Shown here piece after piece: positions 411-14,514 of a stretch of DNA of 64,000 nucleotides (its first letter is position 1; every line of letters starts with the position of its first letter). The stretch spans positions 5,066 through 69,065 of the forward strand of contig JAFGLI010000019.1 in NCBI GenBank assembly GCA_016928115.1, given 5' to 3'. Under the pieces are notes generated by a model. The model saw only the letters and a list, made by a program, of their open reading frames with translations. It ran no database searches and was not told where the DNA came from. This DNA comes from Candidatus Woesearchaeota archaeon (lineage in GTDB: Archaea > Nanobdellota > Nanobdellia > Woesearchaeales > UBA9642). The position numbers and the translations under genes are program-made.

Positions 411-3400
411 ATGGGTTTTTCATTAAAGCCTGTTTTAACAGGAAAACATTTAAAAACCAAAACTGTTTTTTATTTCCTTATGGTAGATTTCAGAAAGACA
501 GAAAAAAAATGGCAGGATAAATGGGATAAGAAGAAATTATTTCAGGTTAAGAAAGACAAAAACAAAAAAAAGTACTATGTTCTCGTAATGTTCCCCTACC
601 CATCAGGCTCCGGACTGCACATGGGTCATGCATTTAATTATATTGTGGGAGACATAATAGCAAGATACAAAAAAATGCAGGGCTTTAATGTTCTGCATCC
701 TATGGGATATGACTCTTTAGGGTTACCTGCAGAAAATGCAGCCATTAAGCAAAAAGAGCATCCGGGGAAATACTCAGAAAAGGCTATTAAAAATTTTATG
801 GACCAGCAGAAATCCTTAGGTATAAGCTATGACTGGTCAAGAACTGTTGAGACTCATTCTCCTGAATACTATAAATGGGACCAGTGGATTTTCCTCAAGA
901 TGCTTGAAAAAGGCCTTGCTTATCAGAAAGAGTCTTCAGTAAACTGGTGCCCTGAATGCAAAACAGTATTGGCAAATGAGCAGGTTCATGACGGAAAATG
1001 CTGGAGGCATGAAGACACAAATGTTGAGATAAAACAACTAAAGCAATGGTTCTTAAGGATAACTGATTATGCTGATGAATTATATGAAAGTATTGACTCA
1101 TTGAAAGGGTGGCCTGAAAGGACAAAAGCAATGCAGAAGAACTGGATTGGAAAAAGCCACGGAACTGAGATTGATTTTGAGATTGAAAATCCAAATAAGA
1201 AAAAAGAAATTAGTAATGTTGTAATTATTCATGGTTCTCCTCATAGTAAAAAACGAGCAAAAGAAGAACCTCAAAATAAGGCTCATTGGATTTCATGGTT
1301 GAAAAAAGAATTAGAAAAACAAGAGATAAAAGTATACAATCCTTTAATGCCTAATTGTTGGAAACCAAAATATGAAGAATGGAAAAAAGAATTTGAAAAA
1401 ATTAACATTAATGAAGATAGTGTTTTAATTGGACATAGTGCAGGAGGAGCTTTTGTGGTTAGATGGTTAAAGGAAACCGGGAAAAAAATTAATAAATTAA
1501 TTTTAATATCTGCAGGGAAAACAACAACTAAGGAAAATAAAAGATTGCATAAATTTTACAGTTTTAATATTGGTGATAAAATCAAAAATAATGTGAAGGA
1601 AACTATTATTTTTATCTCAGATGACGAACCAGATTATAGGAAGAAAAATGCCATAGAATATGAAAAAAAATTAAATGGAAAATTAATCAGTTTGAAAAAC
1701 AGAGGACATTTCACTCTAAAAGGAATGAAAACAAAAGAATTCCCAGAACTTCTTGATGAAATTATTTCAAAAACAAAATTCCCAATATTCACAACACGCC
1801 CCGATACAATCTATGGAGTAACATTTATGGTTATATCTGCACAGCATCCAAAACTTGTTGATTTGATTACAAAAGAGCAGGAAAAAGAAGTTAAAGAATT
1901 CCTTAAAAAGCTTAAATCAGTAAGTGAAAAGGAAATGGAGGATATGGAAAAGGAAGGCGTCTTTACAGGCTCGTTCGCTGTCAATCCAATGACAAATGAA
2001 AAGATTCCTGTTTATGCAGGAAATTTTGTCCTTGCTGATTATGGCTCAGGAATGGTTATGGCTGTGCCTGCCCATGACCAAAGGGATTTTGAATTCGCCA
2101 AAAAATACAATATTCCTGTAAAGATAGTAATACAGCCTGATGCCTATGACATAAATCCTGAAAAAATGTCAAGGGCTTATACTGGAAACGGCAGAATGGT
2201 AAATTCAGGGGAATTCAATAATCTACCTAATAATATTGCAATTGATGAAATCACCAAATACCTGATTAAGAAAAAATCAGGAAGAAAAACAATACAGTAT
2301 AAACTAAAAGACTGGTGCATATCAAGACAAAGATATTGGGGAACTCCCATACCAGTAATATACTGTGATAAATGCGGGATTGTTCCTGTAGCTGAAAAAG
2401 ACCTGCCTGTTAAGCTGCCTGAAAAAGTGAAATTCGGAAAAGGCAATCCTCTTGAAACAAATAAGGATTTTGTGAATGTAAAATGCCCCAGATGCAAAGG
2501 CAATGCAAAAAGGGAAACTGACACAATGGACACTTTTGTAAATTCATCATGGTATTTCTTAAGATACTGCGACCCTGAAAATAATAAAAAGATATTTGAT
2601 AAAGAAAAGGCAAAATACTGGATGCCTGTTGACCAATACATAGGCGGGGCAGAGCATGCATGCATGCACCTTATTTATTTCAGGTTTTACAACAAATTCC
2701 TGAGGGACATTGGCCTTGTTGATGTAGATGAGCCTGCAGTTAATCTGTTCCACCAGGGAATGCTTCATGGTCCGGATGGAAAGGTTATGTCCAAAAGCAG
2801 GGGCAATGTTGTGCTGCCGAAAGAGGTTTCTGAAAAATACGGCATAGATACAGCAAGATTGTTTCTTGTCTCAATAGGCTCTCCTGACAAAGACAGGGAA
2901 TGGAATGAAAAAGGAATCCGGAGCAGCCTTAAGTTCATTGAGAAAGTGTATGATTTTGTAAAAAAATTTAAAGAAAATAAGTCATCACCAATTATTGAAT
3001 CAAAGCTGCATAAAGCCATAAAGACTGTCAGCCAGGATATAGAGAATTTCAGGTATAATCTTGCTGTAATAAAGCTGAGGAAATTATTTGAGGGCATTTG
3101 CGATGAAAAAAACATTACTAAAAAAGACCTTGAAATCTTCCTGAAAATGCTTGCGCCTTTCTGCCCGCATATATGCGAGGAATTATGGGAAAAACTTGGC
3201 AATAAAGGATTTATTTCAGAAGCAAAATGGCCCGGATATGATGATAAGAAAATAAATGAAAAAGCCCTGTACTCTGAGGAGCTTGTTGATAATGTAAGGA
3301 AAGATATTCTTGAGATTATCGGGCTGATTGGAAAAGATGAGAAAGGCATCTCAGAAATTACAATCTATATTGCAGATGAATGGAAATACGGATTATATAA

Positions 3401-3692
3401 AGAGATAAAAAAAGCTATGGAAAAGACACAGGACATAAACGAGATAATGAAAGCAGTGATGAAGACAGAATTCAGGAAATATGGGAAGTATATATCCAAA
3501 AACATGAAGACCATGGTTAACCAGATGCCCTCTATGGTAACTTCAGCAAAAGAGGAGAAAAAAGTGCTTGAAAATTCAGCTGAAAAAATCACTGACTTTA
3601 AATGCAGTGTTATTATAAAGTATGAAAAGGAAGCAGGCGAAAAAGCAAACAAAAGGGCACTGCCCGGGAAGCCTGCAATTGTCATTGAATAA
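411..3692 (+). CDS. leuS: Leucyl-tRNA synthetase, bacterial-type, with an inserted alpha/beta-hydrolase domain. An alternative start at 480 (MVDFRKTEKKWQDKW) matches canonical LeuRS N-termini.
   Basis: HMGH (HIGH-class) motif 'PYPSGSGLHMGHAFNY', 'GYDSLGLPAEN', 'TTRPDT' entry to the CP1 editing domain, 'AVPAHDQRDFEFAKKY', KMSKS as 'VMSKSRGNVV', and a C-terminal anticodon-binding region. About 190 aa are inserted between 'IDFEIEN' and 'TTRPDT'. Confidence 0.9.
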   Translation: MGFSLKPVLTGKHLKTKTVFYFLMVDFRKTEKKWQDKWDKKKLFQVKKDKNKKKYYVLVMFPYPSGSGLHMGHAFNYIVGDIIARYKKMQGFNVLHPMGYDSLGLPAENAAIKQKEHPGKYSEKAIKNFMDQQKSLGISYDWSRTVETHSPEYYKWDQWIFLKMLEKGLAYQKESSVNWCPECKTVLANEQVHDGKCWRHEDTNVEIKQLKQWFLRITDYADELYESIDSLKGWPERTKAMQKNWIGKSHGTEIDFEIENPNKKKEISNVVIIHGSPHSKKRAKEEPQNKAHWISWLKKELEKQEIKVYNPLMPNCWKPKYEEWKKEFEKININEDSVLIGHSAGGAFVVRWLKETGKKINKLILISAGKTTTKENKRLHKFYSFNIGDKIKNNVKETIIFISDDEPDYRKKNAIEYEKKLNGKLISLKNRGHFTLKGMKTKEFPELLDEIISKTKFPIFTTRPDTIYGVTFMVISAQHPKLVDLITKEQEKEVKEFLKKLKSVSEKEMEDMEKEGVFTGSFAVNPMTNEKIPVYAGNFVLADYGSGMVMAVPAHDQRDFEFAKKYNIPVKIVIQPDAYDINPEKMSRAYTGNGRMVNSGEFNNLPNNIAIDEITKYLIKKKSGRKTIQYKLKDWCISRQRYWGTPIPVIYCDKCGIVPVAEKDLPVKLPEKVKFGKGNPLETNKDFVNVKCPRCKGNAKRETDTMDTFVNSSWYFLRYCDPENNKKIFDKEKAKYWMPVDQYIGGAEHACMHLIYFRFYNKFLRDIGLVDVDEPAVNLFHQGMLHGPDGKVMSKSRGNVVLPKEVSEKYGIDTARLFLVSIGSPDKDREWNEKGIRSSLKFIEKVYDFVKKFKENKSSPIIESKLHKAIKTVSQDIENFRYNLAVIKLRKLFEGICDEKNITKKDLEIFLKMLAPFCPHICEELWEKLGNKGFISEAKWPGYDDKKINEKALYSEELVDNVRKDILEIIGLIGKDEKGISEITIYIADEWKYGLYKEIKKAMEKTQDINEIMKAVMKTEFRKYGKYISKNMKTMVNQMPSMVTSAKEEKKVLENSAEKITDFKCSVIIKYEKEAGEKANKRALPGKPAIVIE

Positions 3693-3757: not shown

Positions 3758-4216
3758 ATGAACAAAAAGGGGATATCTCCGTTAATAGCTACTGTACTTC
3801 TGATTTCATTCAGCGTAGCCCTGGGAACAATGGTCATGAGCATAGGCAGGCAGGTTGCAGACACCAGTGGAGAATGCGAAGGGGTTATTCTTGAAATACA
3901 GCAGCTTAATAAAAAAGCAGTCTTGTGCTATGATACTATTGAATCATCCATAAATGTAATCCTGAAAAATATAGGGAGCACTGAAGTCAATGGGATAAAA
4001 ATGAGGGTTATTGACATTGATGAAGAAATAAACGAAGTAAACATATCAAACTCAAAGATACTGGTTGGGGGAATATTCAAAAAAAACATACCCTACAGCA
4101 ACGGAATGGGGGTTTATGTTGAGTTTATACCTTCTGTTATGAAAGAAAGCGGAGAAATAATATACTGCCCCGGGAAAAGCGTTTCAATGGACGGAGTGCC
4201 TGTATGTTCGGCCTGA
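3758..4216 (+). CDS. Archaeal type IV pilin-like protein with a class III signal peptide
   Basis: N-terminus MNKKGISPLIATVLLISFSVALG matches the archaeal prepilin signal (K-G-I/Q-S cleavage site followed by a hydrophobic helix). Confidence 0.7.
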   Translation: MNKKGISPLIATVLLISFSVALGTMVMSIGRQVADTSGECEGVILEIQQLNKKAVLCYDTIESSINVILKNIGSTEVNGIKMRVIDIDEEINEVNISNSKILVGGIFKKNIPYSNGMGVYVEFIPSVMKESGEIIYCPGKSVSMDGVPVCSA

Positions 4217-4226
4217 GAATATAAAA

Positions 4227-5261
4227 TTACTCATAAAAAAATTCTTTTAGATGTGGGTTTTCTTTTTTTAATATCTTCAATGATTTATATCTAAGCTGAT
4301 TTGCCCTTTCTCTTGAGATGTTAAATAATATTCCTATTTCTTCCAGAGTGTGTTGATTTTTCCCGTTTAAACCATAATAAAACTCAAGAATCTTTCTGTC
4401 TCTTCCATTATATTCTCCTCTTGATTCCAGTTTATCAAGGGCTTTTGAAAGTTCATCATGAAGCCTTTTTTTCCTGTAATCATCTTCAGGCATACTTTCT
4501 TCAACAGGAATAAGCTCGCTCCTTTCATCTCCTTCTTCATTAAAGGGGGATGATTCATCGAGTGAAACAAATTCTGTGAATGCCGCTTTCAGGGTATATT
4601 TGCTGTATCTTAAATCAAGCATTTCATTGATCTCATCAAGAGTGGGCTTATAGCCATACTTATTTATAAACTTCTTCTCTGCTTTTTTAACTAAACTTAT
4701 AGAATATGAAAGATTAGCAGGCATCCTGATTGTTCCAATCATTTCAGATATGTGCCTGTAAATACCTGATTTTAACCAAAAATCAGCATATGAAATAAAT
4801 TTTATCTCCTTGTATTTATTCTTATCCCTGAATTCTTTACAGTAATACTTTTCTGCAGCTGTTAAAACCTTCTCTAATCCTGCCTGTATCAAGTCTTCCT
4901 CCTGCAAGGACTCGTCTGGATTGAATTTGAAATAAATATCTCTTGCTGATTTTATGAAAAAAGGAATATTGCGGCTTACGAGTATGTTCTTTGATAATGC
5001 CTTTATATATTCTTTTGGAACATTTCCGTTTTCTGCTTTTTCCTCAAGTCCGATTTTTTCAAGAACTGAAAGCCCGGGGATTTTTTTAATGGCTGTTTTA
5101 AGATTAGTATATCTTCCAGGATTATCCCTTATGTAAGCTAACTTAATTTCCTCTTTTGGCTCCAATAGCTTCACATCTTTAAGATTGCCGTCCTTGAAAT
5201 CCTTAGGAACTAAAATATTTGATACCATTTTTATATAATCTTTACTATTAAAAAGTAACAA
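4227..5261 (-). CDS. Sigma-70 family RNA polymerase sigma factor homologue
   Basis: Region 2 'EEDLIQAGLEKVLTAAEKY...IKFISYADFWLKSGIYRHISEMIGTIRMPANL' resembles DLIQEGNIGLMKAVEKF...FSTYATWWIRQAITRAI...IRIP. Region 3 'KPTLDEINEML'. Region 4.2 'TLEEIGILFNISRERANQLRYKSLKILKK' resembles TLEEVG..F.VTRERIRQIE.KALRKLR. It has no TFB-like zinc ribbon or cyclin folds. Confidence 0.75.
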   Translation of the reverse strand: MLLFNSKDYIKMVSNILVPKDFKDGNLKDVKLLEPKEEIKLAYIRDNPGRYTNLKTAIKKIPGLSVLEKIGLEEKAENGNVPKEYIKALSKNILVSRNIPFFIKSARDIYFKFNPDESLQEEDLIQAGLEKVLTAAEKYYCKEFRDKNKYKEIKFISYADFWLKSGIYRHISEMIGTIRMPANLSYSISLVKKAEKKFINKYGYKPTLDEINEMLDLRYSKYTLKAAFTEFVSLDESSPFNEEGDERSELIPVEESMPEDDYRKKRLHDELSKALDKLESRGEYNGRDRKILEFYYGLNGKNQHTLEEIGILFNISRERANQLRYKSLKILKKENPHLKEFFYE

Positions 5262-5333: not shown

Positions 5334-6131
5334 ATGAGAATAAAACTAAAATTTACAAAATCTCTGGAGGAAAACGCATCATATTATTTTGAAAAGTCTA
5401 AAAGGGCAAAACAGAAATTAGAGAAAACCAAGAAAGCAGTGAGGGATACAAAGAAAAAGCTGGAAAATGCAGAGAAGATTACGAGTGAAGAGATAAAAGA
5501 GGAAAAGAAGAAAAAGAAACTGAAGAAAGTCATAAAAAAGAAAAAATGGTACCAGAATTTCAGGTGGTTCATGTCATCAGACGGCTTTCTTGTTGTGGGT
5601 GGAAGGGATGCAACATCAAATGAGATTATTGTAAAGAAGCATGCATCCGGAAATGACATTGTATTTCATACACAAATGGCAGGAAGCCCTTTTGTTGTAA
5701 TAAAAAATCCTTTAAATAAAGACATTCCTGATTCCACAATACAGCAGGCTGCTGATTTCTGTGTAAGCTTCAGCAGGGCATTTGACGAGGGACTGCAGAC
5801 TTCAGAGGTCTATTATGTAAAGCCCGAGCAGCTTTCCAGGAAAACCAAAGCAGGAGAATATATGGGAAAAGGCGCATTCATGGTATACGGCAAGAGAAAC
5901 TACACAGAAGGGAGGCTTAATGTTGCTGTTGGAAATTACAATGGAACCACTATGTCCGGGCCTGTTGAGGCAGTTGAAAAACACTGCAAAAAATATGTCG
6001 TCCTTAAAAAAGGAAAAGAGAAAAAAAGCGAGCTTGCAAAGAAGATAAGGCATTTATTGGAATTAGATGACCTGGATGAAATAATAAGGTTTATACCAAA
6101 AGAGGCTGAGATTGAAGAAGTAAAAAAATAA
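5334..6131 (+). CDS. C-terminal half of an NFACT/Rqc2-FbpA family protein, with a coiled coil and the NFACT-R/DUF814 domain
   Basis: Lys/Glu-rich coiled coil, then 'WYQNFRWFMSSDGFLVVGGRDATSNEIIVKKHASGNDIVFHTQMAGSPFVV...EVYYVKPEQLSRKTKAGEYMGKGAFMVYGKRNY', typical of DUF814. Confidence 0.7.
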   Translation: MRIKLKFTKSLEENASYYFEKSKRAKQKLEKTKKAVRDTKKKLENAEKITSEEIKEEKKKKKLKKVIKKKKWYQNFRWFMSSDGFLVVGGRDATSNEIIVKKHASGNDIVFHTQMAGSPFVVIKNPLNKDIPDSTIQQAADFCVSFSRAFDEGLQTSEVYYVKPEQLSRKTKAGEYMGKGAFMVYGKRNYTEGRLNVAVGNYNGTTMSGPVEAVEKHCKKYVVLKKGKEKKSELAKKIRHLLELDDLDEIIRFIPKEAEIEEVKK

Positions 6132-6137
6132 AACCAA

Positions 6138-7583
6138 TCAGTTTCTTTTATATAATTTATAAGTTTCTGTTTTATATATTAATTTATTGCTTCTTATTAT
6201 CTCTAAAATCTTTTCTCTTTGCTCCGGACATTTTTCATCAACGGGATTACATTCTATAGAACTAAAAATTATATAATTATAATCTTTTTCTTCTAAAATA
6301 TCTTTCAGCCGCGGCATGCTATAATAATAAGCAATATACATTTTATTATCGATAAATACAGAAGGAAATGGGGTTGTTGTAATAACAGAGCCATTCAGGT
6401 TATTTTCTTTTAAGAAAGAATAAAAATCTTCATCCTTACCCGAAGTATTCAAAAGTTTAACAAGATTGTGTGTTGAGGAAAAAGGAATAATCAGAATGAT
6501 AATGAATATCAGAATTAAAGAAGCAGATAAAACATATTTATTCAGCCATTTCTGCCTTTTCAGAATATTAAAAATGCCATCAACCCCCAAACCTACAAAT
6601 AAGGCCATGAATGAAAAAAAAGCTAAACCATATCTTATTTCCTTATGTGAAGAAATACTGAAATATAAGGCAAATATCAGAAAAGCAAACAGAAAAACCA
6701 GTTTTTCTTTGTTTTTGTAATATTTTCTTCTAAAAAAGAAATATAAACCAGGCAATGAAAACCAAAATAAAGGATTCTGTAAAAAAATATTCTTAAAATA
6801 ATAAAGAAAACCTCCGGTATGAAAAAAACTCGTTATGTTTGATGTATAAATGCCCCCAAGTAAGGGCATGAATATTCTCTGAAAAAAGACCAAATCCTCT
6901 GATTCAAACATAAAATAAGAATATAAACACAAAACCACCACAGAAGAAATAAAAGGAATCCATATTTTTAATAGATTTAAAAGATTATCATTAAATTTTG
7001 TCTTATCTTTTATAATCTCTATGAAAAGCACAATGGTTAAAACCAATATAGACAAAGCAAAAGGAAATCTTGTTAAAAAAGCCAAGCCACAGAACACTCC
7101 TGCAAAAAAATATCTCTCTTTATTGAAAAAATAAAAACTAATAAATACCAACAACAAAGCAGGAAGTGTTGTAAAAATCCTAAAAGAATTAATAAAAAAA
7201 ACAGGCGTAATTATTAAAACAATAACTGCAATCAAAGAAATTGCTTTATTAAATACCTTCGCCCCAAAAAAATAAAGATAAAAAAGAAATAAAGAAGATA
7301 TAACTATAGATAAAATTCTTCCCATTATCAGGGGATCAAAAGATAATTTCCATAAAAAACCATTAATCAGAGACAATAATGGGGGTCTAAATGGCTCTAT
7401 GAATGCATTTCTGCCCAAGGAATAGAAATATTTCCCCATTGCAATATAAACTGCTTCATCCCAATAAATTTTTTGTCCTTTAAAAATTAGCAACTGAAAA
7501 ACAAAAAAAGCAAAGATAATAACAAGAATTAGAATTTTAGTTTCTTTAAAATTATTAAGAAAATCCTTTTTTTTAATATTCAT
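6138..7583 (-). CDS. GT-C fold glycosyltransferase, ArnT/PMT (GT39/83)-like polytopic membrane protein
   Basis: Multiple TM helices. The first extracytoplasmic loop 'IYWDEAVYIAMGKYFYSLGRNAFIEPFRPPLLSL' matches the ArnT-family DE..Y......KPPL motif. A C-terminal soluble domain is present. Confidence 0.6.
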   Translation of the reverse strand: MNIKKKDFLNNFKETKILILVIIFAFFVFQLLIFKGQKIYWDEAVYIAMGKYFYSLGRNAFIEPFRPPLLSLINGFLWKLSFDPLIMGRILSIVISSLFLFYLYFFGAKVFNKAISLIAVIVLIITPVFFINSFRIFTTLPALLLVFISFYFFNKERYFFAGVFCGLAFLTRFPFALSILVLTIVLFIEIIKDKTKFNDNLLNLLKIWIPFISSVVVLCLYSYFMFESEDLVFFQRIFMPLLGGIYTSNITSFFHTGGFLYYFKNIFLQNPLFWFSLPGLYFFFRRKYYKNKEKLVFLFAFLIFALYFSISSHKEIRYGLAFFSFMALFVGLGVDGIFNILKRQKWLNKYVLSASLILIFIIILIIPFSSTHNLVKLLNTSGKDEDFYSFLKENNLNGSVITTTPFPSVFIDNKMYIAYYYSMPRLKDILEEKDYNYIIFSSIECNPVDEKCPEQREKILEIIRSNKLIYKTETYKLYKRN

Positions 7584-7591
7584 TTTTAAAT

Positions 7592-8284
7592 TTAATTATC
7601 TGAGTCATTGCACTCTTCAATATCCCCATAATAAGAGCAGATTTTTTCAACTATCTTTTCTTTGGTGGTGAATGCAGGAAACTTCTCATCCTCAATTATT
7701 AATGTTGGGTACTGAGTAATGTTATATTGCTGCTTGAGAATCTCGACCATGGGCTCATTAAGCTGCTCATCTATCGGAAAGTTTAAAAGCTTTTCACCGA
7801 AATATTTTTTAAGGTAAGTAAGAACAAATTCCTGCTTCTCGCACATAGGGCATTTTTTATCATCTGAATAAAAATAAAGTATACTCACTCCCTTACGACC
7901 GCAGACATCCTTTACTTCATTTGCAAGCATCCAGTAATTAATCTGCTCCAATGTATACTTTCTTTTCAGCAGCTCGAACTTCTCATCATTTATTTTGCTG
8001 TCTTTTTCATAATTAACCAGCTTTACTCTTGTCTTTTCCAGCTCCACAAGGTTTTTCTCCAATGAAGAATAAAGAACAGAGCACGGCAGGTCTTCTTTTA
8101 ACCCAAGAAGATATTTATATTGTAATTGTGAAGAGCTGAGCTCAACCTCATGCTCCTCATACATTGATTCAACATAATAAGTTCTCTGGCCTTCTATAAT
8201 CAAGCCCAAGGATAAGCCAAGGGCAAATATCAGTAATGTAATTATTCCTGCCATCACATACCTTTTCCAGCTGAATTCTACCAT
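7592..8284 (-). CDS. Membrane-anchored thioredoxin-fold protein with a CxxC active site
   Basis: N-terminal TM helix; 'ILYFYSDDKKCPMCEKQE' (CPMC) and a downstream 'YPTLII' cis-Pro-like motif, typical of the thioredoxin/DsbA fold. Confidence 0.45.
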   Translation of the reverse strand: MVEFSWKRYVMAGIITLLIFALGLSLGLIIEGQRTYYVESMYEEHEVELSSSQLQYKYLLGLKEDLPCSVLYSSLEKNLVELEKTRVKLVNYEKDSKINDEKFELLKRKYTLEQINYWMLANEVKDVCGRKGVSILYFYSDDKKCPMCEKQEFVLTYLKKYFGEKLLNFPIDEQLNEPMVEILKQQYNITQYPTLIIEDEKFPAFTTKEKIVEKICSYYGDIEECNDSDN

Positions 8285-9525
8285 TTCTGAACCCTCCTGA
8301 ATATCAAATCAAAAAACACGCCTACCCAGATAAATCCCATAAGAAGATAATAAAACAGGAAATATGTAAACAAGCTGAAAACCCCTTTCCTGAACATCCT
8401 CTCATTTGCATTCCTGATTGAGTTTACAAAAAATATCAGGCTCATCATAATCATAGTCATTATTGTTATCAAAGCCATATAATCAAGGTCAAGAATACTG
8501 AAGTTCAGGCTGAAATTGTATATGAAAGTCATGAAATCAAAATCCACAGAGGCAAAATTAAAAAGGTTGCTCACTAAAGGCGGGATTATTCTATTAATCA
8601 TCAGAAATAAAAGTATGATAACAATAACTCCGGATAATATTATTGAAGGCATCTGCAGCATGCCAAAATTTCCGTATTCCTTCCTGAAAAGCATTCTCCT
8701 GTAATTTATAACATTCAGTGTAGAGCCCTTGAACCATCGGTTTCTCTGTTTTACCACGCCCCGTATGTCCTTTGGCGCTATTGTATAAACTTCAGTATCA
8801 TAAGTCTGCACAACCCTGTACTTGTGCTTGTGCATCCTGAAAACAATCTCAAGGTCCTCTGTAAGGTTGTTCTCATCAAAACCACCTAATTTTTCAAGAA
8901 TGGATTTCCTGTATATTGAAAAAGGACCCGGAGCAACATGAATACAGTTTAATGCATTCATAAGTTTTTTATAGAACATGTTTATCAGGTACTCATACCA
9001 TTGTATCTTCTGTATATTTGATTCTGCTTTTTTTATCTTCATCAGAGGCAGAACAGCCGCCATATTCCTGTCAGCATAAAAATAAGGAAGCATCTTTTTC
9101 AGGGCATCTTTTCTTACAAAAGAATCAGCATCCAGACACACAAAAAAATCTCCTCTTGACTCTTTTAACCCCAGATTGAGGGCCTTTCCCTTTCCGCCGT
9201 TCTTTTTGCTTATGAGCCTCAGGGGCTGTTCTGGATTGTCCTTTATTATTCTTTTTACTATATTTTTAGTATGGTCTGTAGAGCCGTCATTTACAACCAT
9301 TATCTCCATTTTATCTTTCGGATAATCCAGGTCAAACAAAGACATTATGCTGCCTTTTATTGAGTCTTCCTCATTATATGCGGGAAGGACTACAGAAACA
9401 AAAGGATAGTTTTTTATGGGCTTTTTTTCAGGATAATGCTTGTTTTCAAAAATGACCATAATCCAGAATACTCCAAGATACAAAGAGATGAAATACACTG
9501 TCCAAAATAATATATTAAGTATCAT
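8278..9525 (-). CDS. Processive family-2 glycosyltransferase (PgaC/NodC/cellulose-synthase-like) with flanking TM helices
   Basis: 'VVLPAYNEEDSI', 'MVVNDGSTD', 'CLDADS' (DxD) and 'QRNRWFKG' (the QxxRW motif of processive beta-glycosyltransferases); N- and C-terminal TM segments. Confidence 0.8.
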   Translation of the reverse strand: MILNILFWTVYFISLYLGVFWIMVIFENKHYPEKKPIKNYPFVSVVLPAYNEEDSIKGSIMSLFDLDYPKDKMEIMVVNDGSTDHTKNIVKRIIKDNPEQPLRLISKKNGGKGKALNLGLKESRGDFFVCLDADSFVRKDALKKMLPYFYADRNMAAVLPLMKIKKAESNIQKIQWYEYLINMFYKKLMNALNCIHVAPGPFSIYRKSILEKLGGFDENNLTEDLEIVFRMHKHKYRVVQTYDTEVYTIAPKDIRGVVKQRNRWFKGSTLNVINYRRMLFRKEYGNFGMLQMPSIILSGVIVIILLFLMINRIIPPLVSNLFNFASVDFDFMTFIYNFSLNFSILDLDYMALITIMTMIMMSLIFFVNSIRNANERMFRKGVFSLFTYFLFYYLLMGFIWVGVFFDLIFRRVQKW

Positions 9526-9533
9526 TGCTATTA

Positions 9534-10925
9534 TCAGGGATTATATTCCCACAGCTCAACCTCATTGAAGTCCCTGATTTTAATAAACTTTTCGTTATAG
9601 TGCAATAAAAACAACAATCCCTTCAGGGGCCTTGGCCATATCTCCTCCCTGCTTTTTTCATCTATAATTATGTATTTTATATCATTCTCATCGAAAATCC
9701 TGCTTGTGGTCTGTATGTTCTGCGAATCGAACAATGAATAGAATTCTTCGTATTTCTTTGGCTTTGTGTGCTTATATTCATAATACAATGCAGGCTCCCT
9801 TTCTGCAATATGCTTGATGAACATGTCATTCTGAGGACGGGACAATACTTTATAGTCGGGGTCAGAATGCTTTTTCAGGTACAATAATGCTTTTTCCATA
9901 TCAATAGAAGGCTCTTCTGTAGTAAGGGAGGAAAGGGTGAAAACAGTGGAGAAAACAATACTGAATATTATGATTGAAATTACAAAATCTTTCAGCAGGG
10001 AGAAATCCCAGTACCTTTCAATAAGATAAATCATTCCTGATGAAGCATAGAACACCATGACAAGATTGCAGAAAAGCCTTGCCGAAGGGCTGAAAAAAGA
10101 GATTACAAGCAATGCAAAAAATGCCAGGTGGGGCAGGACAAAATAAAACGACCTTTTCCAGTTTACTGAAATTCCAAGGATGAAAAGTATGACAAGGAAA
10201 ACAGGAAAGCCTGTATATGAGCCTATTTCAGAGAAATAATTTGCAATTCCTATGTTGGGGTCAAAAAAGTTAAGTATGTTATTGTTGAAAACAAGCAAGC
10301 CAAGCAAAAAGGCTGTGAAAGGAAATATTATTAGGAAGAGCCAGGACTTTGATTTCCTGTATTCCGACATATATAAAAGATAAAAGGAAAAAAACAGGAG
10401 CATTATGACAAATGAGAATATTTCAGTAAAAGCAAGAAGGGCAACCAACACAGATGATTCAATGAGGCGGTTCTTAAGGGCTAATAATACTACTGATAGT
10501 GAAATTACCATTATAAATGAATAAGGGGTAAACGCAGTTGAAATGAAAATGATAAAAGGAGAAACTGTGAAAAAAAGCATTCCCAGAAATAACTCATTCC
10601 GGTTGATTTTCGGATTTATTTTTGATTTTATCTCAAGCACGATAAAATAAAAAAGGACAAAGCTTAACAACCCAAATAAAAGGGGAAGCGCCTGTGTTAT
10701 GAAGTTTAATGTGAATGCCTTTTCCAGCACGATTATGATAAAATGGAAAAGGTTGAAGTTATTAATATTTATTGCTGAAGGTATGTTGTTAAGATGGATG
10801 TATGACTCATAAGTAAAGGTATGGGTGTGCCCCTGAATATTCCTGAGCCTCGGGGGTATAAGTATGAGGATTACAAATACAAAAAACAATGCCAAAAGCC
10901 ATTTTTTGTCTTTCATTTTCCACAC
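9534..10925 (-). CDS. Polytopic membrane protein with a C-terminal soluble domain, probably GT-C-like; part of the glycan operon
   Basis: About 10 predicted TM helices followed by a roughly 130-aa hydrophilic tail; tightly packed, same strand, between GT2 and GT-C genes. Confidence 0.4.
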   Translation of the reverse strand: MWKMKDKKWLLALFFVFVILILIPPRLRNIQGHTHTFTYESYIHLNNIPSAININNFNLFHFIIIVLEKAFTLNFITQALPLLFGLLSFVLFYFIVLEIKSKINPKINRNELFLGMLFFTVSPFIIFISTAFTPYSFIMVISLSVVLLALKNRLIESSVLVALLAFTEIFSFVIMLLFFSFYLLYMSEYRKSKSWLFLIIFPFTAFLLGLLVFNNNILNFFDPNIGIANYFSEIGSYTGFPVFLVILFILGISVNWKRSFYFVLPHLAFFALLVISFFSPSARLFCNLVMVFYASSGMIYLIERYWDFSLLKDFVISIIIFSIVFSTVFTLSSLTTEEPSIDMEKALLYLKKHSDPDYKVLSRPQNDMFIKHIAEREPALYYEYKHTKPKKYEEFYSLFDSQNIQTTSRIFDENDIKYIIIDEKSREEIWPRPLKGLLFLLHYNEKFIKIRDFNEVELWEYNP

Positions 10926-12418
10926 CTGTATTCATAAATCTCTATCATGGGCTCCCCAATATTTGACCCATATAGCAAATCAAAACATAAAGGGTCATCT
11001 TTTGTATAGACTATATCTTTTATATTAAATTCATCTTTTATTGAATCTGATAGATATATATAATCAACCCCGTAATAATTGAGCTTCTCTGCTGCCGGGC
11101 TCTCTAATCTTGATGCGTATATTATCCTTATGTCCTGCAGCCTCGTACTTACGTCGTTTATGAGCAGAAAGTTGTTATCTGCAATATTCTTAGTGTTGGA
11201 ATAATAGTTAAGTATATATCCCTTGTCTGCTGTTATGAGGGTTGTTTCTGACGGGTTTGAATGCTCTTTCAGCCATATAAAGGAATCAACCTCGCTTTCT
11301 GTGGGTGTCTTTTTCAGGGAGTCCCGGGCTGCCTTGACTGAGCTGAAACCTGATGAAAGCAGGAATATGCTTACAAAGAATATCAGGAGGAACCTGTATA
11401 TGAATGAAATCTTTGTCTTATGAAAATAAAGGTAAAATGTCTTCAGTGTGAATGATGATGCAATAACCATCAGTAATGATAATATTAATAATCCTGTCTT
11501 TAATTCTATTAATGTGAAGAAAAGAAGGACAAATATCAAGGAAGAGATTGCGGTTATAAGGAAAACAATCTTGTTTTTTCTTTCATGGAACGCAAAATAC
11601 ATCGCCAATACGCCCAGTATTAAGGGGAGTATGCCTATATATGCAAACATCTGCGGGAAACTGAGATTTATGAAATATTCCCTCAGAACAGTCTGGGGAA
11701 GGTTCTTCCATATAACCCTTATGCCGTGGTTCACAAGCGCGTTTTTGTATATCAGGAGGTTTGCCCAGACTGAAAGGAACAATGCAAAAAGAACCCACTC
11801 AATCCTCCCCGTCCTTACCTGCTTCTGCTCTATCCTGCATATTGCAACGTATATTAAAAGACCCAATACCAAAATAAAGACTAAAGGTGAAGAGAAAACT
11901 AACAGAATGAGTAAGAATATTGACCAGTTAAGGTGGTTTTTGTTTTCAAGGTTTAAAAATAAGAGTAAAATTATGAATGTGATGATTATTGAAAAATAGT
12001 CTGTTGTGAGTGTGTTTATGTCAAGAAACCAGACAGGTATGAACACGGATAGGAAAGATGTGACTAATGAAATCTCCTTGTTTTTTGTGATTTTATGTGA
12101 AAAAAAGTAGATTATGAATATTATAGATGAAGCTAAAATATTGGGGATGAGTTTGACTGCTATTGTAATGGGCATAAAAAGGCTGAAGAATGCAAGGAAA
12201 TAATAATATGCCGGAGTGAATAAGAAAGTTCTTCCCTGGTATGATAAAGGGTCATTGAACAAAGGCATTCCTGTCTTGGATATATGTTCGATTTGTCTTA
12301 GGGCAAAATAAGCATCATAGTCCATGTATTGTGTTTGGAAAGCAAAGAATAATCTTAAAGATAAAACTACAAAGAAAAATACCCATAACCACACCCATGG
12401 CTTTTTTATACTTCTCAT
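10913..12418 (-). CDS. GT-C fold glycosyltransferase-like polytopic membrane protein (STT3/ArnT superfamily, N-terminal DxD loop)
   Basis: N-terminal loop 'YMDYDAYFALRQIEHISKTGMPLFNDPLSYQGRTF' resembles the STT3/AglB/ArnT first periplasmic loop (DxD...R...DP.SY.GR). Many TM helices, C-terminal soluble domain. No WWDYG motif was seen, so I do not call it AglB. Confidence 0.45.
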   Translation of the reverse strand: MRSIKKPWVWLWVFFFVVLSLRLFFAFQTQYMDYDAYFALRQIEHISKTGMPLFNDPLSYQGRTFLFTPAYYYFLAFFSLFMPITIAVKLIPNILASSIIFIIYFFSHKITKNKEISLVTSFLSVFIPVWFLDINTLTTDYFSIIITFIILLLFLNLENKNHLNWSIFLLILLVFSSPLVFILVLGLLIYVAICRIEQKQVRTGRIEWVLFALFLSVWANLLIYKNALVNHGIRVIWKNLPQTVLREYFINLSFPQMFAYIGILPLILGVLAMYFAFHERKNKIVFLITAISSLIFVLLFFTLIELKTGLLILSLLMVIASSFTLKTFYLYFHKTKISFIYRFLLIFFVSIFLLSSGFSSVKAARDSLKKTPTESEVDSFIWLKEHSNPSETTLITADKGYILNYYSNTKNIADNNFLLINDVSTRLQDIRIIYASRLESPAAEKLNYYGVDYIYLSDSIKDEFNIKDIVYTKDDPLCFDLLYGSNIGEPMIEIYEYRCGK

Positions 12419-12499: not shown

Positions 12500-12895
12500 A
12501 TGAAAATTGAACATTCCCTTCCTAAGGGAATTAATATGGGGGAAATAAAAGAAAAAAAGAACGATTACCAGAGAAAAATCGGTCTGGATATATTGCTGAC
12601 AAAAAAACCCATACGAAGAGACCAGAAAGGCATTAAATCACTAAAAGAGCTGGAGAGGATTCTGATAGAAAATGACTTCACCATAACATATATGAATGAA
12701 AGAAGAATTTTGAGGGTTCAGAGGATTATTCAGGGAATACGCGAAGAAAGAACTGATTATCCGACTTTTTACACTATAAAAATGGGGAATACGCCCAGGC
12801 ACATAAGACTAAGGGTAAAAAGCCCCATAAACAACAAAGACCCCGAGAAGCTTGTGGATATTTTATCTGAGTATGTTAAGCATTTATACAGATAA
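12500..12895 (+). CDS. Hypothetical protein, tandem paralogue A
   Basis: 131 aa; shares 'IGLDILLTK...ITY...RLRV...PE.LVDILSEYVKHLYR' with the adjacent ORF, whose counterparts are 'ISLDLLLTK...IEY...RLMA...LLEISSKFVKSLYK'. Confidence 0.5.
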   Translation: MKIEHSLPKGINMGEIKEKKNDYQRKIGLDILLTKKPIRRDQKGIKSLKELERILIENDFTITYMNERRILRVQRIIQGIREERTDYPTFYTIKMGNTPRHIRLRVKSPINNKDPEKLVDILSEYVKHLYR

Positions 12896-12915: not shown

Positions 12916-13281
12916 ATGTATGACGATATAAAAAAACTTTTTCCTGAAGAAGTTAAAATCAATAAATGGGTGGAAAAAGTAGGCGAAAGTGAAAGGGATA
13001 TAAGCCTGGACTTATTGCTGACAAAAAACCCTGTTTGTAATATTAAATTACAGGAACTGCTGACAGAAGAAGGATTTTATATTGAATACAAGGATGAGGC
13101 AAAGCTAAGAAGCCAGGAAATCTATGAAGGAAGATCCTATAAAGAAATGGGACTGACTTCATACAGAATAATAATAACAAACAACTCGTTAAGGCTGATG
13201 GCTCACGGACAGAAAAAGAATAAGGGGCCAGATGTGCTTTTAGAAATTTCTTCAAAATTTGTAAAAAGTTTATATAAATAA
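12916..13281 (+). CDS. Hypothetical protein, tandem paralogue B
   Basis: 121 aa; paralogous to 12500..12895. Confidence 0.5.
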   Translation: MYDDIKKLFPEEVKINKWVEKVGESERDISLDLLLTKNPVCNIKLQELLTEEGFYIEYKDEAKLRSQEIYEGRSYKEMGLTSYRIIITNNSLRLMAHGQKKNKGPDVLLEISSKFVKSLYK

Positions 13282-13324: not shown

Positions 13325-14008
13325 ATGGAAAAAATAACTAGCGGCAGTTCTGCTATTGATGAATTGCTTAAGGGGGGCTATGAAAAGGACATTATAACCA
13401 CCATATATGGCCCTGCAGGCTCCGGAAAGACAAACTTATGCTTGGTTGCTGTTAAAGCTTTGGATGATGAAAAGAAAGTATTGTTTATAGACACAGAAGG
13501 GGGTTTTTCTGTTGACAGGTTTAAGCAGATGTGCAAGGATGAAGAAGAGCTTGAAGAAAAGATGAAAAGGATAATGTTCATTACACCAGTCACATTTGAT
13601 GAGCAGAAAAGGATTTTTTCCAAATTAGATGAATATGTTGATGAGAATGTGGGGCTGCTTGTTTTTGACAGCATTGCTATGTTATATAGGCTGGAGATGG
13701 GAAAGGGGAAGAATGTGCAGAAGATTAATAGTTTGTTAGCACAGCAGTTAAGCTGTTTGAGTAAGATAGCGAGGGATAAGAACATTCCTGTCCTGATTAC
13801 CAACCAGGTTTATGCTGATTTTGAGAATAAAAATAATGTCAAGATGGTTGGCGGTGATTTGTTAAAATACCAAAGCAAGTGTCTGATTGAATTACAGAAT
13901 TTAAAAGGCTCTAACAGAATGGCTGTTATTAGGAAGCACAGGTCCCTGCCAGAGGGCAGGAAAGTCAAGTTTAAGATTATTAATAAGGGTATTGAAAAGG
14001 CTGAATAA
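13325..14008 (+). CDS. radB: RadB, a RecA/RadA-family recombinase paralogue
   Basis: Walker A 'GPAGSGKTNLC' and Walker B 'LLVFDSIA'. About 227 aa, with no N-terminal HhH domain, which fits archaeal RadB rather than RadA. Confidence 0.75.
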   Translation: MEKITSGSSAIDELLKGGYEKDIITTIYGPAGSGKTNLCLVAVKALDDEKKVLFIDTEGGFSVDRFKQMCKDEEELEEKMKRIMFITPVTFDEQKRIFSKLDEYVDENVGLLVFDSIAMLYRLEMGKGKNVQKINSLLAQQLSCLSKIARDKNIPVLITNQVYADFENKNNVKMVGGDLLKYQSKCLIELQNLKGSNRMAVIRKHRSLPEGRKVKFKIINKGIEKAE

Positions 14009-14025
14009 ACTTTTGGGGTGAGAAA

Positions 14026-14514
14026 ATGCCTGCATGCGATATGTGCGGTAAGACAATAGACAGAATCTATAAGACCATGGTTGAAGGTGTTTTAATGGAT
14101 TTGTGTGATGACTGCTCTAAGTTTGGTGAAGTTGTTTCTGAAAGAAATGTTTTGATAGAGAAAAAGAAGAAGAAAATTAAAGAGAAAAAAGAAATTAAAA
14201 GAGAAGAAGATGAAAAACAACCTGAAATTGTACAAGTTATTGTTGATAACTATGGTAAATTAATAAGAGATAAAAGAGAGAGAAAAGGATTAAAGCAGGA
14301 AGAATTAGCCAATAAATTAAAGGAAAAAGAATCTGTAATCAAAAAACTGGAAAAAGAAGAACTAGAACCTTCTATTAAACTGGCAAAGAAACTTGAATCT
14401 TTCTTCAATATAAAATTAATTGAAGAAGTTAAATTAAAGGAAAATATCTTACAAAAACTAAAAAAAGAAAACAATGACAAAGGAGATGAGTTGACTTTAG
14501 GGGATTTGATGTAG
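14026..14514 (+). CDS. Archaeal multiprotein-bridging factor 1 (aMBF1): N-terminal Zn ribbon plus C-terminal XRE HTH
   Basis: 'MPACDMCGK...DLCDDCSKFG' (C4 ribbon) and C-terminal 'GLKQEELANKLKEKESVIKKLEKEELEPSIKLAKKLESFFNIKLIE', matching the aMBF1 HTH. Confidence 0.8.
   Translation: MPACDMCGKTIDRIYKTMVEGVLMDLCDDCSKFGEVVSERNVLIEKKKKKIKEKKEIKREEDEKQPEIVQVIVDNYGKLIRDKRERKGLKQEELANKLKEKESVIKKLEKEELEPSIKLAKKLESFFNIKLIEEVKLKENILQKLKKENNDKGDELTLGDLM

Follow-up and report, generated by a model that had tools for sequence, protein, structure and literature searches.

A conserved five-gene cluster of Woesearchaeota pairing a synthase-type GT2 with STT3-like GT-C proteins and a membrane thioredoxin-like protein: a candidate cell-envelope glycan operon

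A stretch of 64,000 nucleotides of contig JAFGLI010000019.1 from a Candidatus Woesearchaeota archaeon (assembly GCA_016928115.1), referred to as the window, contains five consecutive minus-strand open reading frames (ORFs) at 6138–12418, listed in the order P5-P4-GT2-Trx-P1. They encode a synthase-type glycosyltransferase of family GT2, three polytopic proteins of GT-C type (P5, P4 and P1) and a membrane-anchored thioredoxin-fold protein (the Trx-like protein). We propose that this operon specifies a cell-envelope glycan assembly line and belongs to the core features that Woesearchaeota pass on vertically, a proposal to which we give roughly an even chance of being right. The fold or family of each of the five proteins, the tight packing of their genes and the conservation of gene order among relatives were observed directly. 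An earlier note on this DNA had described five minus-strand genes with overlaps or very short gaps, and the junctions bear this out, with P5 and P4 overlapping by 13 nt and GT2 and Trx by 7 nt, and with 8-nt gaps between P4 and GT2 and between Trx and P1. The motifs quoted in that note were all found in the translations (DAD and QRNRW in GT2, WDEAVY...RPPLL in P1 and CPMC in the Trx-like protein).

GT2 matched the Pfam family Glycos_transf_2 (1e-34) together with Glyco_trans_2_3, Chitin_synth_2 and Glyco_transf_21, the last at 40.6 bits, above its cut-off. The best NCBIfam model was TIGR03937 PgaC_IcaA, with residues 20–410 aligned to positions 21–393 of a model of 407. Among 75 family sequences D132-x-D134, E223-D224 (of the TED motif), Q260, R263 and G267 are invariant, with D80, T222 and W264 conserved at 93–98%. 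A family profile (A5) aligned with E. coli BcsA over 8–351, with HAS1 over 86–358 and with chitin synthases over 119–410 of 414, so that the alignment extends through the membrane part of the protein. Its layout comprises one N-terminal transmembrane (TM) helix, a basic soluble GT-A domain of 257 residues and a C-terminal hydrophobic bundle (segments 286–412). The presence of the D, DxD, TED and QRxRW motifs followed by a TM bundle identifies GT2 as processive-synthase-type, for which a polymerizing and translocating activity may be predicted. Its earlier description as PgaC/NodC/cellulose-synthase-like is upheld by the Pfam and NCBIfam matches, the motif conservation and the family-profile alignments. 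The leading guess for the polymer is a HexNAc (N-acetylhexosamine)-based one of poly-N-acetylglucosamine (PNAG) or chitin type, a hint that comes from PgaC/IcaA as the best named family and from a deacetylase-like fusion at a related locus, L008.

For the three polytopic proteins, single-sequence searches against the PDB returned no match and pairwise BLASTP among them gave chance-level matches only; their homology was clear only with profiles. P5 alone produced nothing but a sub-threshold PMT_2 match in Pfam. A profile built from 36 P5 homologues matched STT3A (E=7e-9) over two separate regions. One is the first loop, where 'sddeaYfalRq' aligned to 'HEFDPYFNYRT' of STT3A, and the other the WWDYG region of STT3A, occupied in the profile by 'vvlasleeGhlityiakrknviDsnfL'. 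The same profile matched the C-terminal domain of A. fulgidus AglB-S2 (E=2e-4). P5 has the STT3 fold, namely a multi-pass TM domain with external loops EL1 and EL5 followed by a C-terminal core domain. It also carries the first-loop acidic (DxD) motif, D35-A-Y37-F-A-L-R41-Q42, which aligns to DPYFNYR in STT3A and to DPYYFYRQ in the AglB of Woesearchaeota. At position 35, 74 of 86 sequences (86%) have D or E, and an acid lies within four residues of it in 84 of the 86. When compared with the AglB of its own lineage, P5 has kept this motif, along with a W-x-N element ahead of EL5 and the Asp that follows the WWDxG position.

The Pfam STT3 model (PF02516) matched neither P5 nor P4 nor any of the 36 family members. 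At the WWDxG position, where the family consensus is x-L-[E/D]-[E/D]-G, the P5 of the window reads TADKG; both tryptophans are lost in P5 and P4, and no WWDxG occurs in the six frames of the window. The earlier suggestion of an STT3-like first loop in a protein that is not a canonical AglB is therefore sustained, the loop in question reading MDYDAY in P5. Aligned columns for the second DxD/DxE, the EL5 TIXE/SVSE glutamate and the DK/MI motif are not conserved in the P5 family, which has invariant positions of its own at R22, Y37, D56 (in 'DPLSYGGR'), L58, S59, G62, P69, P128, E207 (in 'E-x-E'), N239, P265 and G400, together with the pair C478/C499 (100%). The invariant D56, E207 and N239, added to the acid that occupies position 35 in most members, give P5 the look of an active enzyme, and it is likely the catalytic subunit of a P5/P4 pair. 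The family is large, with at least 680 clusters at 50% identity at E<=1e-30 and 1341 at E<=1e-10.

Comparison of the P4 and P5 families with hhalign gave a full-length alignment of 424 columns (99.95% probability, E=1.3e-37), and the P4 profile (A6) matched STT3A (E=2.7e-6), AfAglB-S2 (6.7e-6) and PglB (2e-3). These matches of P5 and P4 to STT3/AglB support the earlier assignment of two further large polytopic proteins as GT-C-like. Conservation in P4 falls mainly on G, P, W, F and Y. Of its acidic residues, E40 reaches 67% conservation and D233 80%, and the first-loop insert that carries D56 in P5 is missing. As it has no invariant acidic residue, P4 is probably a degenerate, non-catalytic partner of P5. 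Only seven P4 relatives were retrieved by a word-indexed search, and phmmer places P4 beside P5 in nearly every locus; the NCBIfam scan of P4 gave a chance-level CrcB match.

We rejected the possibility that P5 is simply the AglB of this lineage with a drifted motif, as canonical AglB genes with WWDFG occur in the same genomes. Two lie within 10 kb of the cluster (L065:17948-20851 and L073:11661-14840; Pfam STT3 at 7e-45 or 3e-43), and a third AglB homologue is present in L024. P5 and P4 are thus additional, divergent STT3-fold paralogues and would not constitute the general oligosaccharyltransferase (OST). Loss of the WWDxG tryptophans and of the DK/MI pocket, which read the +2 Ser/Thr of N-x-S/T, argues that the acceptor of P5/P4 would be something other than the classical sequon. 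As a separate observation, the canonical AglB at L073:11661-14840 carries, as a C-terminal fusion, a parvulin-type peptidyl-prolyl isomerase (Rotamase) domain.

P1 exceeded the Pfam cut-offs for both PMT_2 (32.2 bits against 26.1) and Glyco_transf_22 (29.1 against 23.8), in keeping with its earlier description as an ArnT/PMT-like GT-C protein. Its family profile (A7) matched ALG12 (E=3.9e-7) and GPI mannosyltransferase 1 (4e-4), and hhalign of the P1 and P5 families gave 98.8%. Invariant residues are D42 (in W41-D42-E43), R66-P67, Y307 and R317, and C445/C452 is conserved at 93%. P5 (C478/C499), P1 (C445/C452) and the Trx-like protein (C68/C128) each have a conserved cysteine pair in a C-terminal or stalk domain, which fits an outward-facing position of these domains. 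In the closest relative (L086, 91% identity in P5) the Trx gene is followed directly by the NFACT gene, which indicates that P1 is accessory and was recently gained or lost.

The surroundings of P1 in relatives bear on its donor. At nine loci a UbiA-family protein follows P1 directly (for example L030:7324-8190 and L065:16328-17185), scoring 220–225 bits with the decaprenyl-phosphate phosphoribosyltransferase model, just under the cut-off of 234, which suggests a polyprenyl-phospho-pentose donor pathway in archaea. At about ten loci a small soluble GT2 resembling AglJ/Dol-P-hexose (dolichol-phosphate-hexose) synthases adjoins P1. Placement of a donor synthase beside a GT-C is a feature of three-component extracytoplasmic glycosylation systems (PMC11127046), and its occurrence beside P1 in relatives supports P1 as an outward-facing transferase using polyprenyl-phosphate sugars. 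The window itself holds no homologue of the UbiA protein or of the small GT2, and the neighbours showed no flippase family. At L008 (14952-17444) an 830-aa P1-like GT-C carries a C-terminal DUF2334/polysaccharide-deacetylase-like domain, a weak hint at a substrate with N-acetylated sugars. A GH3 signal appeared among neighbours (6 of 50 unlabelled ones); the one candidate scanned was a methyltransferase-like protein.

The membrane-anchored thioredoxin-fold CPMC protein inferred earlier was recovered by both profile and predicted structure. The family profile matched thioredoxins at E=1e-7 with CxxC and cis-Pro aligned, and in an AlphaFold 2 model (mean confidence score, pLDDT, 91) a helix at 6–60 that includes the TM segment is followed by stalk helices at 68–95 and 100–128 and a thioredoxin fold at 133–219. 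C145-P-M-C148 lies at the N-terminus of helix 1 of that fold, the canonical position, and cis-Pro193 in the cis-Pro loop. The three-helix stalk is stapled by C68/C128, which is invariant (100%). Two basic residues before the TM helix, together with the conserved cysteine pairs, indicate an N-in, C-out orientation. Of 54 species-level sequences, 37 have CxxC, nine have CxxS in its place and eight have lost it by deletion. Since CxxC is not universal, redox chemistry is probably not the core role of the protein. At nine loci an extra gene of about 700 aa lies between Trx and P1 (for example L076:14871-17081, L013:14822-16939, L036:14817-16916 and L055:7397-9760). The N-terminal 215 aa of its product form a Trx-like paralogue with TM helix, stalk and thioredoxin fold and without CxxC, and the remaining ~500 aa have no Pfam match. 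Retention of the module in this CxxC-less paralogue suggests that the stalk-plus-thioredoxin unit acts mainly as a scaffold. Oxidation of the P1 cysteine pair by the CxxC was considered and rejected, as presence of CxxC and presence of P1 are not associated (Fisher p=0.74). The P5 cysteine pair is kept in lineages whose Trx-like protein is without CxxC.

Conservation of the cluster was assessed in GTDB species representatives by a pattern scan derived from a narrow P5 alignment, which gave 132 P5 relatives; 80 genomes were kept, all of them Woesearchaeota, Nanoarchaeia or mislabelled bins. ORFs were called with our own caller and labelled by best score with hidden Markov models (HMMs) iterated once, since with fully iterated models P1, P4 and P5 collapsed into a single group. 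The counts are limited by contig ends, and junctions were counted at loci with enough sequence only. The commonest layout is RadB(-) / P5 P4 GT2 Trx [P1] / MBF1(-). P4 follows P5 in 66 of 68 loci (97%; median junction -4 nt), GT2 follows P4 in 52 of 65 (80%; +20 nt), Trx follows GT2 in 41 of 50 (82%; -7 nt), four further GT2-Trx pairs being inverted together, and P1 follows Trx in 21 of 34. Such a conserved order in relatives argues that the arrangement is not due to chance. GT2 and Trx are inverted as a unit at L001, L035, L047, L058 and L059, and L002, L006, L022 and L042 have two synthase-type GT2 genes and no Trx. P5 and P4 likewise behave as one unit. Homologues carry the labels Woesearchaeota or Nanoarchaeota. 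In the window RadB and MBF1 (13325-14514, +) adjoin the operon on one side, while in most relatives they stand on opposite sides of the cluster, so the neighbourhood has been rearranged and the five genes have stayed together. Relative to the earlier note, the refinements are that P5 and P4 are mutual paralogues, each with the whole of a minimal STT3/AglB fold, that the cluster is conserved in Woesearchaeota, that P1 is accessory and that CxxC is not universal in the Trx-like family.

From these data a four-step pathway may be proposed. GT2, assigned to the synthases by sequence and architecture, would polymerize a beta-glycan from a UDP-sugar at the cytoplasmic face and thread the polymer through its own C-terminal helix bundle. 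The Trx-like protein, on the outer face, would serve as an accessory subunit of the synthase, a role suggested by the translational coupling and co-inversion of the GT2 and Trx genes, with the CxxC providing an optional thiol-disulfide activity in most lineages, this one included. P5 and P4, whose fold and homology are established, would form a heteromeric, outward-facing GT-C derived from STT3/AglB, in which P5 is the putative catalyst ([D/E]35-x-Y37...R41-Q42, D56, E207, N239) and P4 is structural. Using a polyprenyl-phosphate-linked donor, the pair might either decorate the nascent polymer or transfer, and so anchor, a lipid-linked glycan onto a surface acceptor. Finally P1, of known family and with a donor suggested by its relatives, would add a further sugar from a polyprenyl-phosphate monosaccharide at the outer face. 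The term 'synthesis-and-export module', applied to the operon in the earlier note, likewise describes something that we infer.

Several observations weigh against an assembly line of this kind. GT2 scores 171.7 bits with TIGR03937 PgaC_IcaA, far under the equivalog cut-off of 422.3, and its best single-sequence PDB match is the crenarchaeal PcManGT (6yv7), an N-glycan mannosyltransferase. GT2 enzymes with QxxRW are not always polymer exporters, as NodC, ceramide glucosyltransferase and PcManGT illustrate. Among the five operon and eight flanking proteins tested there was no Pfam or NCBIfam match to PgaD/IcaD or PgaB/IcaB, and the window has no homologue of PgaA, PgaB, PgaD or BcsB. With the second DxD and the TIXE glutamate of STT3 enzymes unconserved, the catalytic geometry of P5 is uncertain. 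The P5 of the window moreover carries R205 and K399 at positions where 94% of the family has E and 91% has E or D. This double acid-to-base swap is common to the closest relative (P0001, 91% identical), so that this lineage may differ in substrate; the two residues may be a compensating pair or may reflect a changed ligand. P5-P4 stands without adjacent GT2-Trx at L004, L066, L067 and L072, and since the pair occurs alone in some genomes the two modules are separable. Physical P5-P4 and GT2-Trx complexes are deduced from gene order alone.

The strongest competitor to an envelope glycan assembly line is a second, non-canonical protein glycosylation system of agl type, which we consider possible and clearly the less probable of the two. 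In such a system P5 and P4 would be an OST with a non-sequon acceptor, GT2 and P1 would build or trim its dolichol-linked glycan instead of producing a free polymer, and the Trx-like protein would be Ost3/Ost6-like, holding substrates that contain cysteine as those proteins (TUSC3/MagT1) do beside STT3. The full STT3/AglB fold of P5/P4 and the alignment of their first-loop [D/E]-x-Y...RQ to DPYYFYRQ of AglB are consistent with this, as is the resemblance of P1 to ALG12/ALG9, enzymes that act on lipid-linked oligosaccharide. The proximity of a canonical AglB in L065 and L073 is reminiscent of aglB-centred gene islands, a thioredoxin-fold membrane protein with CxxC beside an STT3 homologue recalls Ost3/6, and PcManGT, the closest single-sequence relative of GT2 in the PDB, is itself an enzyme of N-glycan synthesis. 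It is countered by the lack of conservation of WWDxG, the DK/MI pocket, the second DxD and the TIXE glutamate, by the coupling of the Trx gene to GT2 and not to P5/P4, by the loss of CxxC in 17 of 54 members of the Trx-like family and by the alignment of GT2 with polymer synthases through the membrane domain.

Less probable again is a lipoglycan or glycolipid pathway, in which GT2 would glycosylate an inner-face lipid, in the manner of GT21 or processive lipid enzymes, and the three GT-C proteins would extend the flipped glycolipid from polyprenyl-phosphate sugars. Its model is the extension of mycobacterial lipomannan and lipoarabinomannan by PimE, Emb and Aft enzymes. GT2 does score above the Glyco_transf_21 cut-off and has ceramide glucosyltransferase matches, but its alignments with PgaC/IcaA, BcsA, hyaluronan synthase (HAS) and chitin synthase are much stronger and reach over the C-terminal TM bundle. 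Similarly, a UbiA protein like the decaprenyl-phosphoryl-phosphoribose (DPPR) synthase adjoins P1 in nine relatives, but its gene is not in the window.

That the five genes are neighbours without a shared pathway, held together by a conserved radB-mbf1 backbone, we regard as a slighter prospect still. The cluster does lie between the RadB and MBF1 housekeeping genes in most relatives, P1 is dispensable and a few loci have P5-P4 without GT2-Trx. Co-translation is nevertheless indicated by the junctions of the window, which overlap or span 8 nt, and by the median overlaps in 80 species, each of the five products belongs to the membrane glycosylation machinery and has outward-facing domains, and in the window the RadB/MBF1 arrangement has changed with the five genes still together. 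Finally, the earlier note had named as its own refutation a finding that the polytopic proteins are transporters with no relation to glycosyltransferases. The idea that they are such transporters or permeases could draw on the empty single-sequence PDB searches of P1, P4 and P5 and the chance-level CrcB match of P4, but it is refuted for practical purposes, because profile searches, profile-profile comparison and predicted fold placed all three in GT-C and none of them matched a transporter family.

The proposed glycan assembly line has partial counterparts among characterized systems. P5/P4 are closest to AglB/STT3/PglB (GT66), especially the short AglB-S of A. fulgidus, from which they differ by the tandem pairing with a degenerate paralogue, by the family's own invariant D56 and E-x-E207 and by escaping the Pfam STT3 model, with which the lineage's AglB scores 7e-45. 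With the DPY19 C-mannosyltransferases (GT98), as with other STT3-fold GT-C enzymes that have non-N-glycan acceptors, only the fold is common (7% identity). DPY19, a eukaryotic enzyme, has the Trp of WxxW as its target. Pmt1-Pmt2 and EmbA-EmbB, in which two paralogous GT-C subunits work together, offer a model for a P5-P4 heteromer; in both, each subunit keeps its catalytic residues, whereas P4 has none that is invariant.

On the synthase side, PgaCD/IcaAD, BcsA-BcsB and the chitin and hyaluronan synthases share with GT2 the D, DxD, TED and QRxRW motifs and the C-terminal TM bundle, and the GT2 gene, like those with a PgaD, IcaD or BcsB partner, is followed by one for a small membrane protein. 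That partner is here a thioredoxin fold unrelated to PgaD, IcaD or BcsB, no PilZ/cyclic di-GMP module is present, and none of the known systems includes an association with GT-C enzymes. In Streptomyces CslA-GlxA a synthase-type GT2 is likewise paired with an outward-facing redox-type protein, but GlxA is a copper radical oxidase and not a thioredoxin, with no homology. The Ost3/Ost6 (TUSC3/MagT1) proteins also combine a membrane anchor with an extracytoplasmic CxxC thioredoxin fold beside STT3 homologues, and a comparable helper role is conceivable. Their topology is opposite, an N-terminal thioredoxin domain preceding four TM helices as against the N-terminal TM helix and stalk of the Trx-like protein, for which no specific structural match to Ost3/Ost6/TUSC3/MagT1 was found. 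Loci in which a donor synthase adjoins P1 resemble GtrA/GtrB/GtrC, the set of polyprenyl-phosphoribose synthase, MATE flippase and GT136 (PMC11127046) and mycobacterial DPPR synthase with Emb/Aft. The window, unlike these three-component systems, has the GT-C only, and P1 is closest to GT22/PMT_2 and not to GT136.

Coordinates of the five genes and of candidate transcription signals are collected in Table 1. The TATA-like TTTTTAAA near the P5 start codon suggests a leaderless or short-leader archaeal transcript, and together with the T-run TTTTATTTTTTT it is compatible with one archaeal transcription unit.

Table 1. Genes of the operon and candidate transcription signals, in positions of the window
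Feature	Position	Strand	Description
P5	10913..12418	-	501 aa, minimal STT3/AglB-fold GT-C without WWDxG
P4	9534..10925	-	463 aa, fast-evolving P5 paralogue, STT3-like architecture
GT2	8278..9525	-	415 aa, membrane-integrated, processive beta-glycan synthase-type
Trx-like	7592..8284	-	230 aa, single TM helix, stalk and thioredoxin fold
P1	6138..7583	-	481 aa, GT-C of ALG9/ALG12/PMT type
TATA-like box TTTTTAAA	12441..12448	-	23-30 nt upstream of the P5 ATG; read by eye from the sequence
Oligo-T tract TTTTATTTTTTT	6122..6133	-	5 nt past the P1 stop codon; candidate archaeal terminator, read by eye

The G+C content of the operon region is 0.29–0.36, like that of the remainder of the window. The operon is flanked upstream by RadB and an MBF1-like helix-turn-helix protein and downstream by NFACT, a Sigma70_r4 protein, a pilin-like ORF and leucyl-tRNA synthetase (LeuRS), and the content of these flanking genes shows the genome to be that of a DPANN archaeon. 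Between P5 and RadB lie two small tandem plus-strand ORFs (12500-12895 and 12916-13281; 131 and 121 aa) that look like paralogues and have neither a Pfam match nor a homologue among 85 related loci. The LeuRS (411-3692, +; 1093 aa) contains an inserted alpha/beta-hydrolase domain (Ser_hydrolase, PF06821, 51 bits, residues 289–437) directly before its editing domain (residues 454–618); in the closest relative, L086, LeuRS has 876 aa and Ser_hydrolase is absent from its precomputed Pfam list. A 344-aa protein (4227-5261, -) of this archaeal genome contains a Sigma-70 region 4 domain (PF04545), which scored 31.9 bits with the cut-off at 24.1, and is conserved in the same relative (L086:6180-7181). 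A 152-aa ORF (3758-4216, +) without a Pfam match begins with an archaeal class III (type IV pilin-like) signal sequence, MNKKGISPLIATVLLISFSVALG.

Every component of the operon belongs to a known superfamily. Three features appear new, namely an STT3-fold pair devoid of the sequon motif, the fixed linkage of this pair to a synthase-type GT2, and a partner protein with a thioredoxin fold. In the searchable literature, outside which most subscription journals lie, neither the cluster nor any STT3/AglB paralogue without WWDxG in DPANN archaea was found described. Tentatively, and as a more specific proposal that we think doubtful, P5/P4 could represent a new GT-C family, a heterodimer of active enzyme and pseudo-enzyme derived from STT3, which has ceased to read N-x-S/T and together with GT2 and a Trx-like exit subunit builds and anchors a hitherto unknown wall-like (chitin- or PNAG-like) polysaccharide at the cell surface of Woesearchaeota. 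If true, this would reveal an envelope polymer of DPANN archaea and a transition from OST to polysaccharide transferase, neither of them described before.

Woesearchaeota are among the most widespread DPANN lineages, and we know of no experimental work on their cell envelope. Essentially all of the species-level genomes examined have the operon, and its two most conserved proteins are annotated as hypothetical and have no Pfam family of their own. Being small (415–501 aa), the proteins could be expressed and assayed heterologously. Re-use of the STT3/AglB fold after loss of the sequon motif, beside a canonical AglB, bears on the diversification of OSTs and may be compared with that of DPY19 in eukaryotes. 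The genes of the operon are also candidates for the synthesis of a surface polymer that could mediate attachment of these episymbionts to their hosts.

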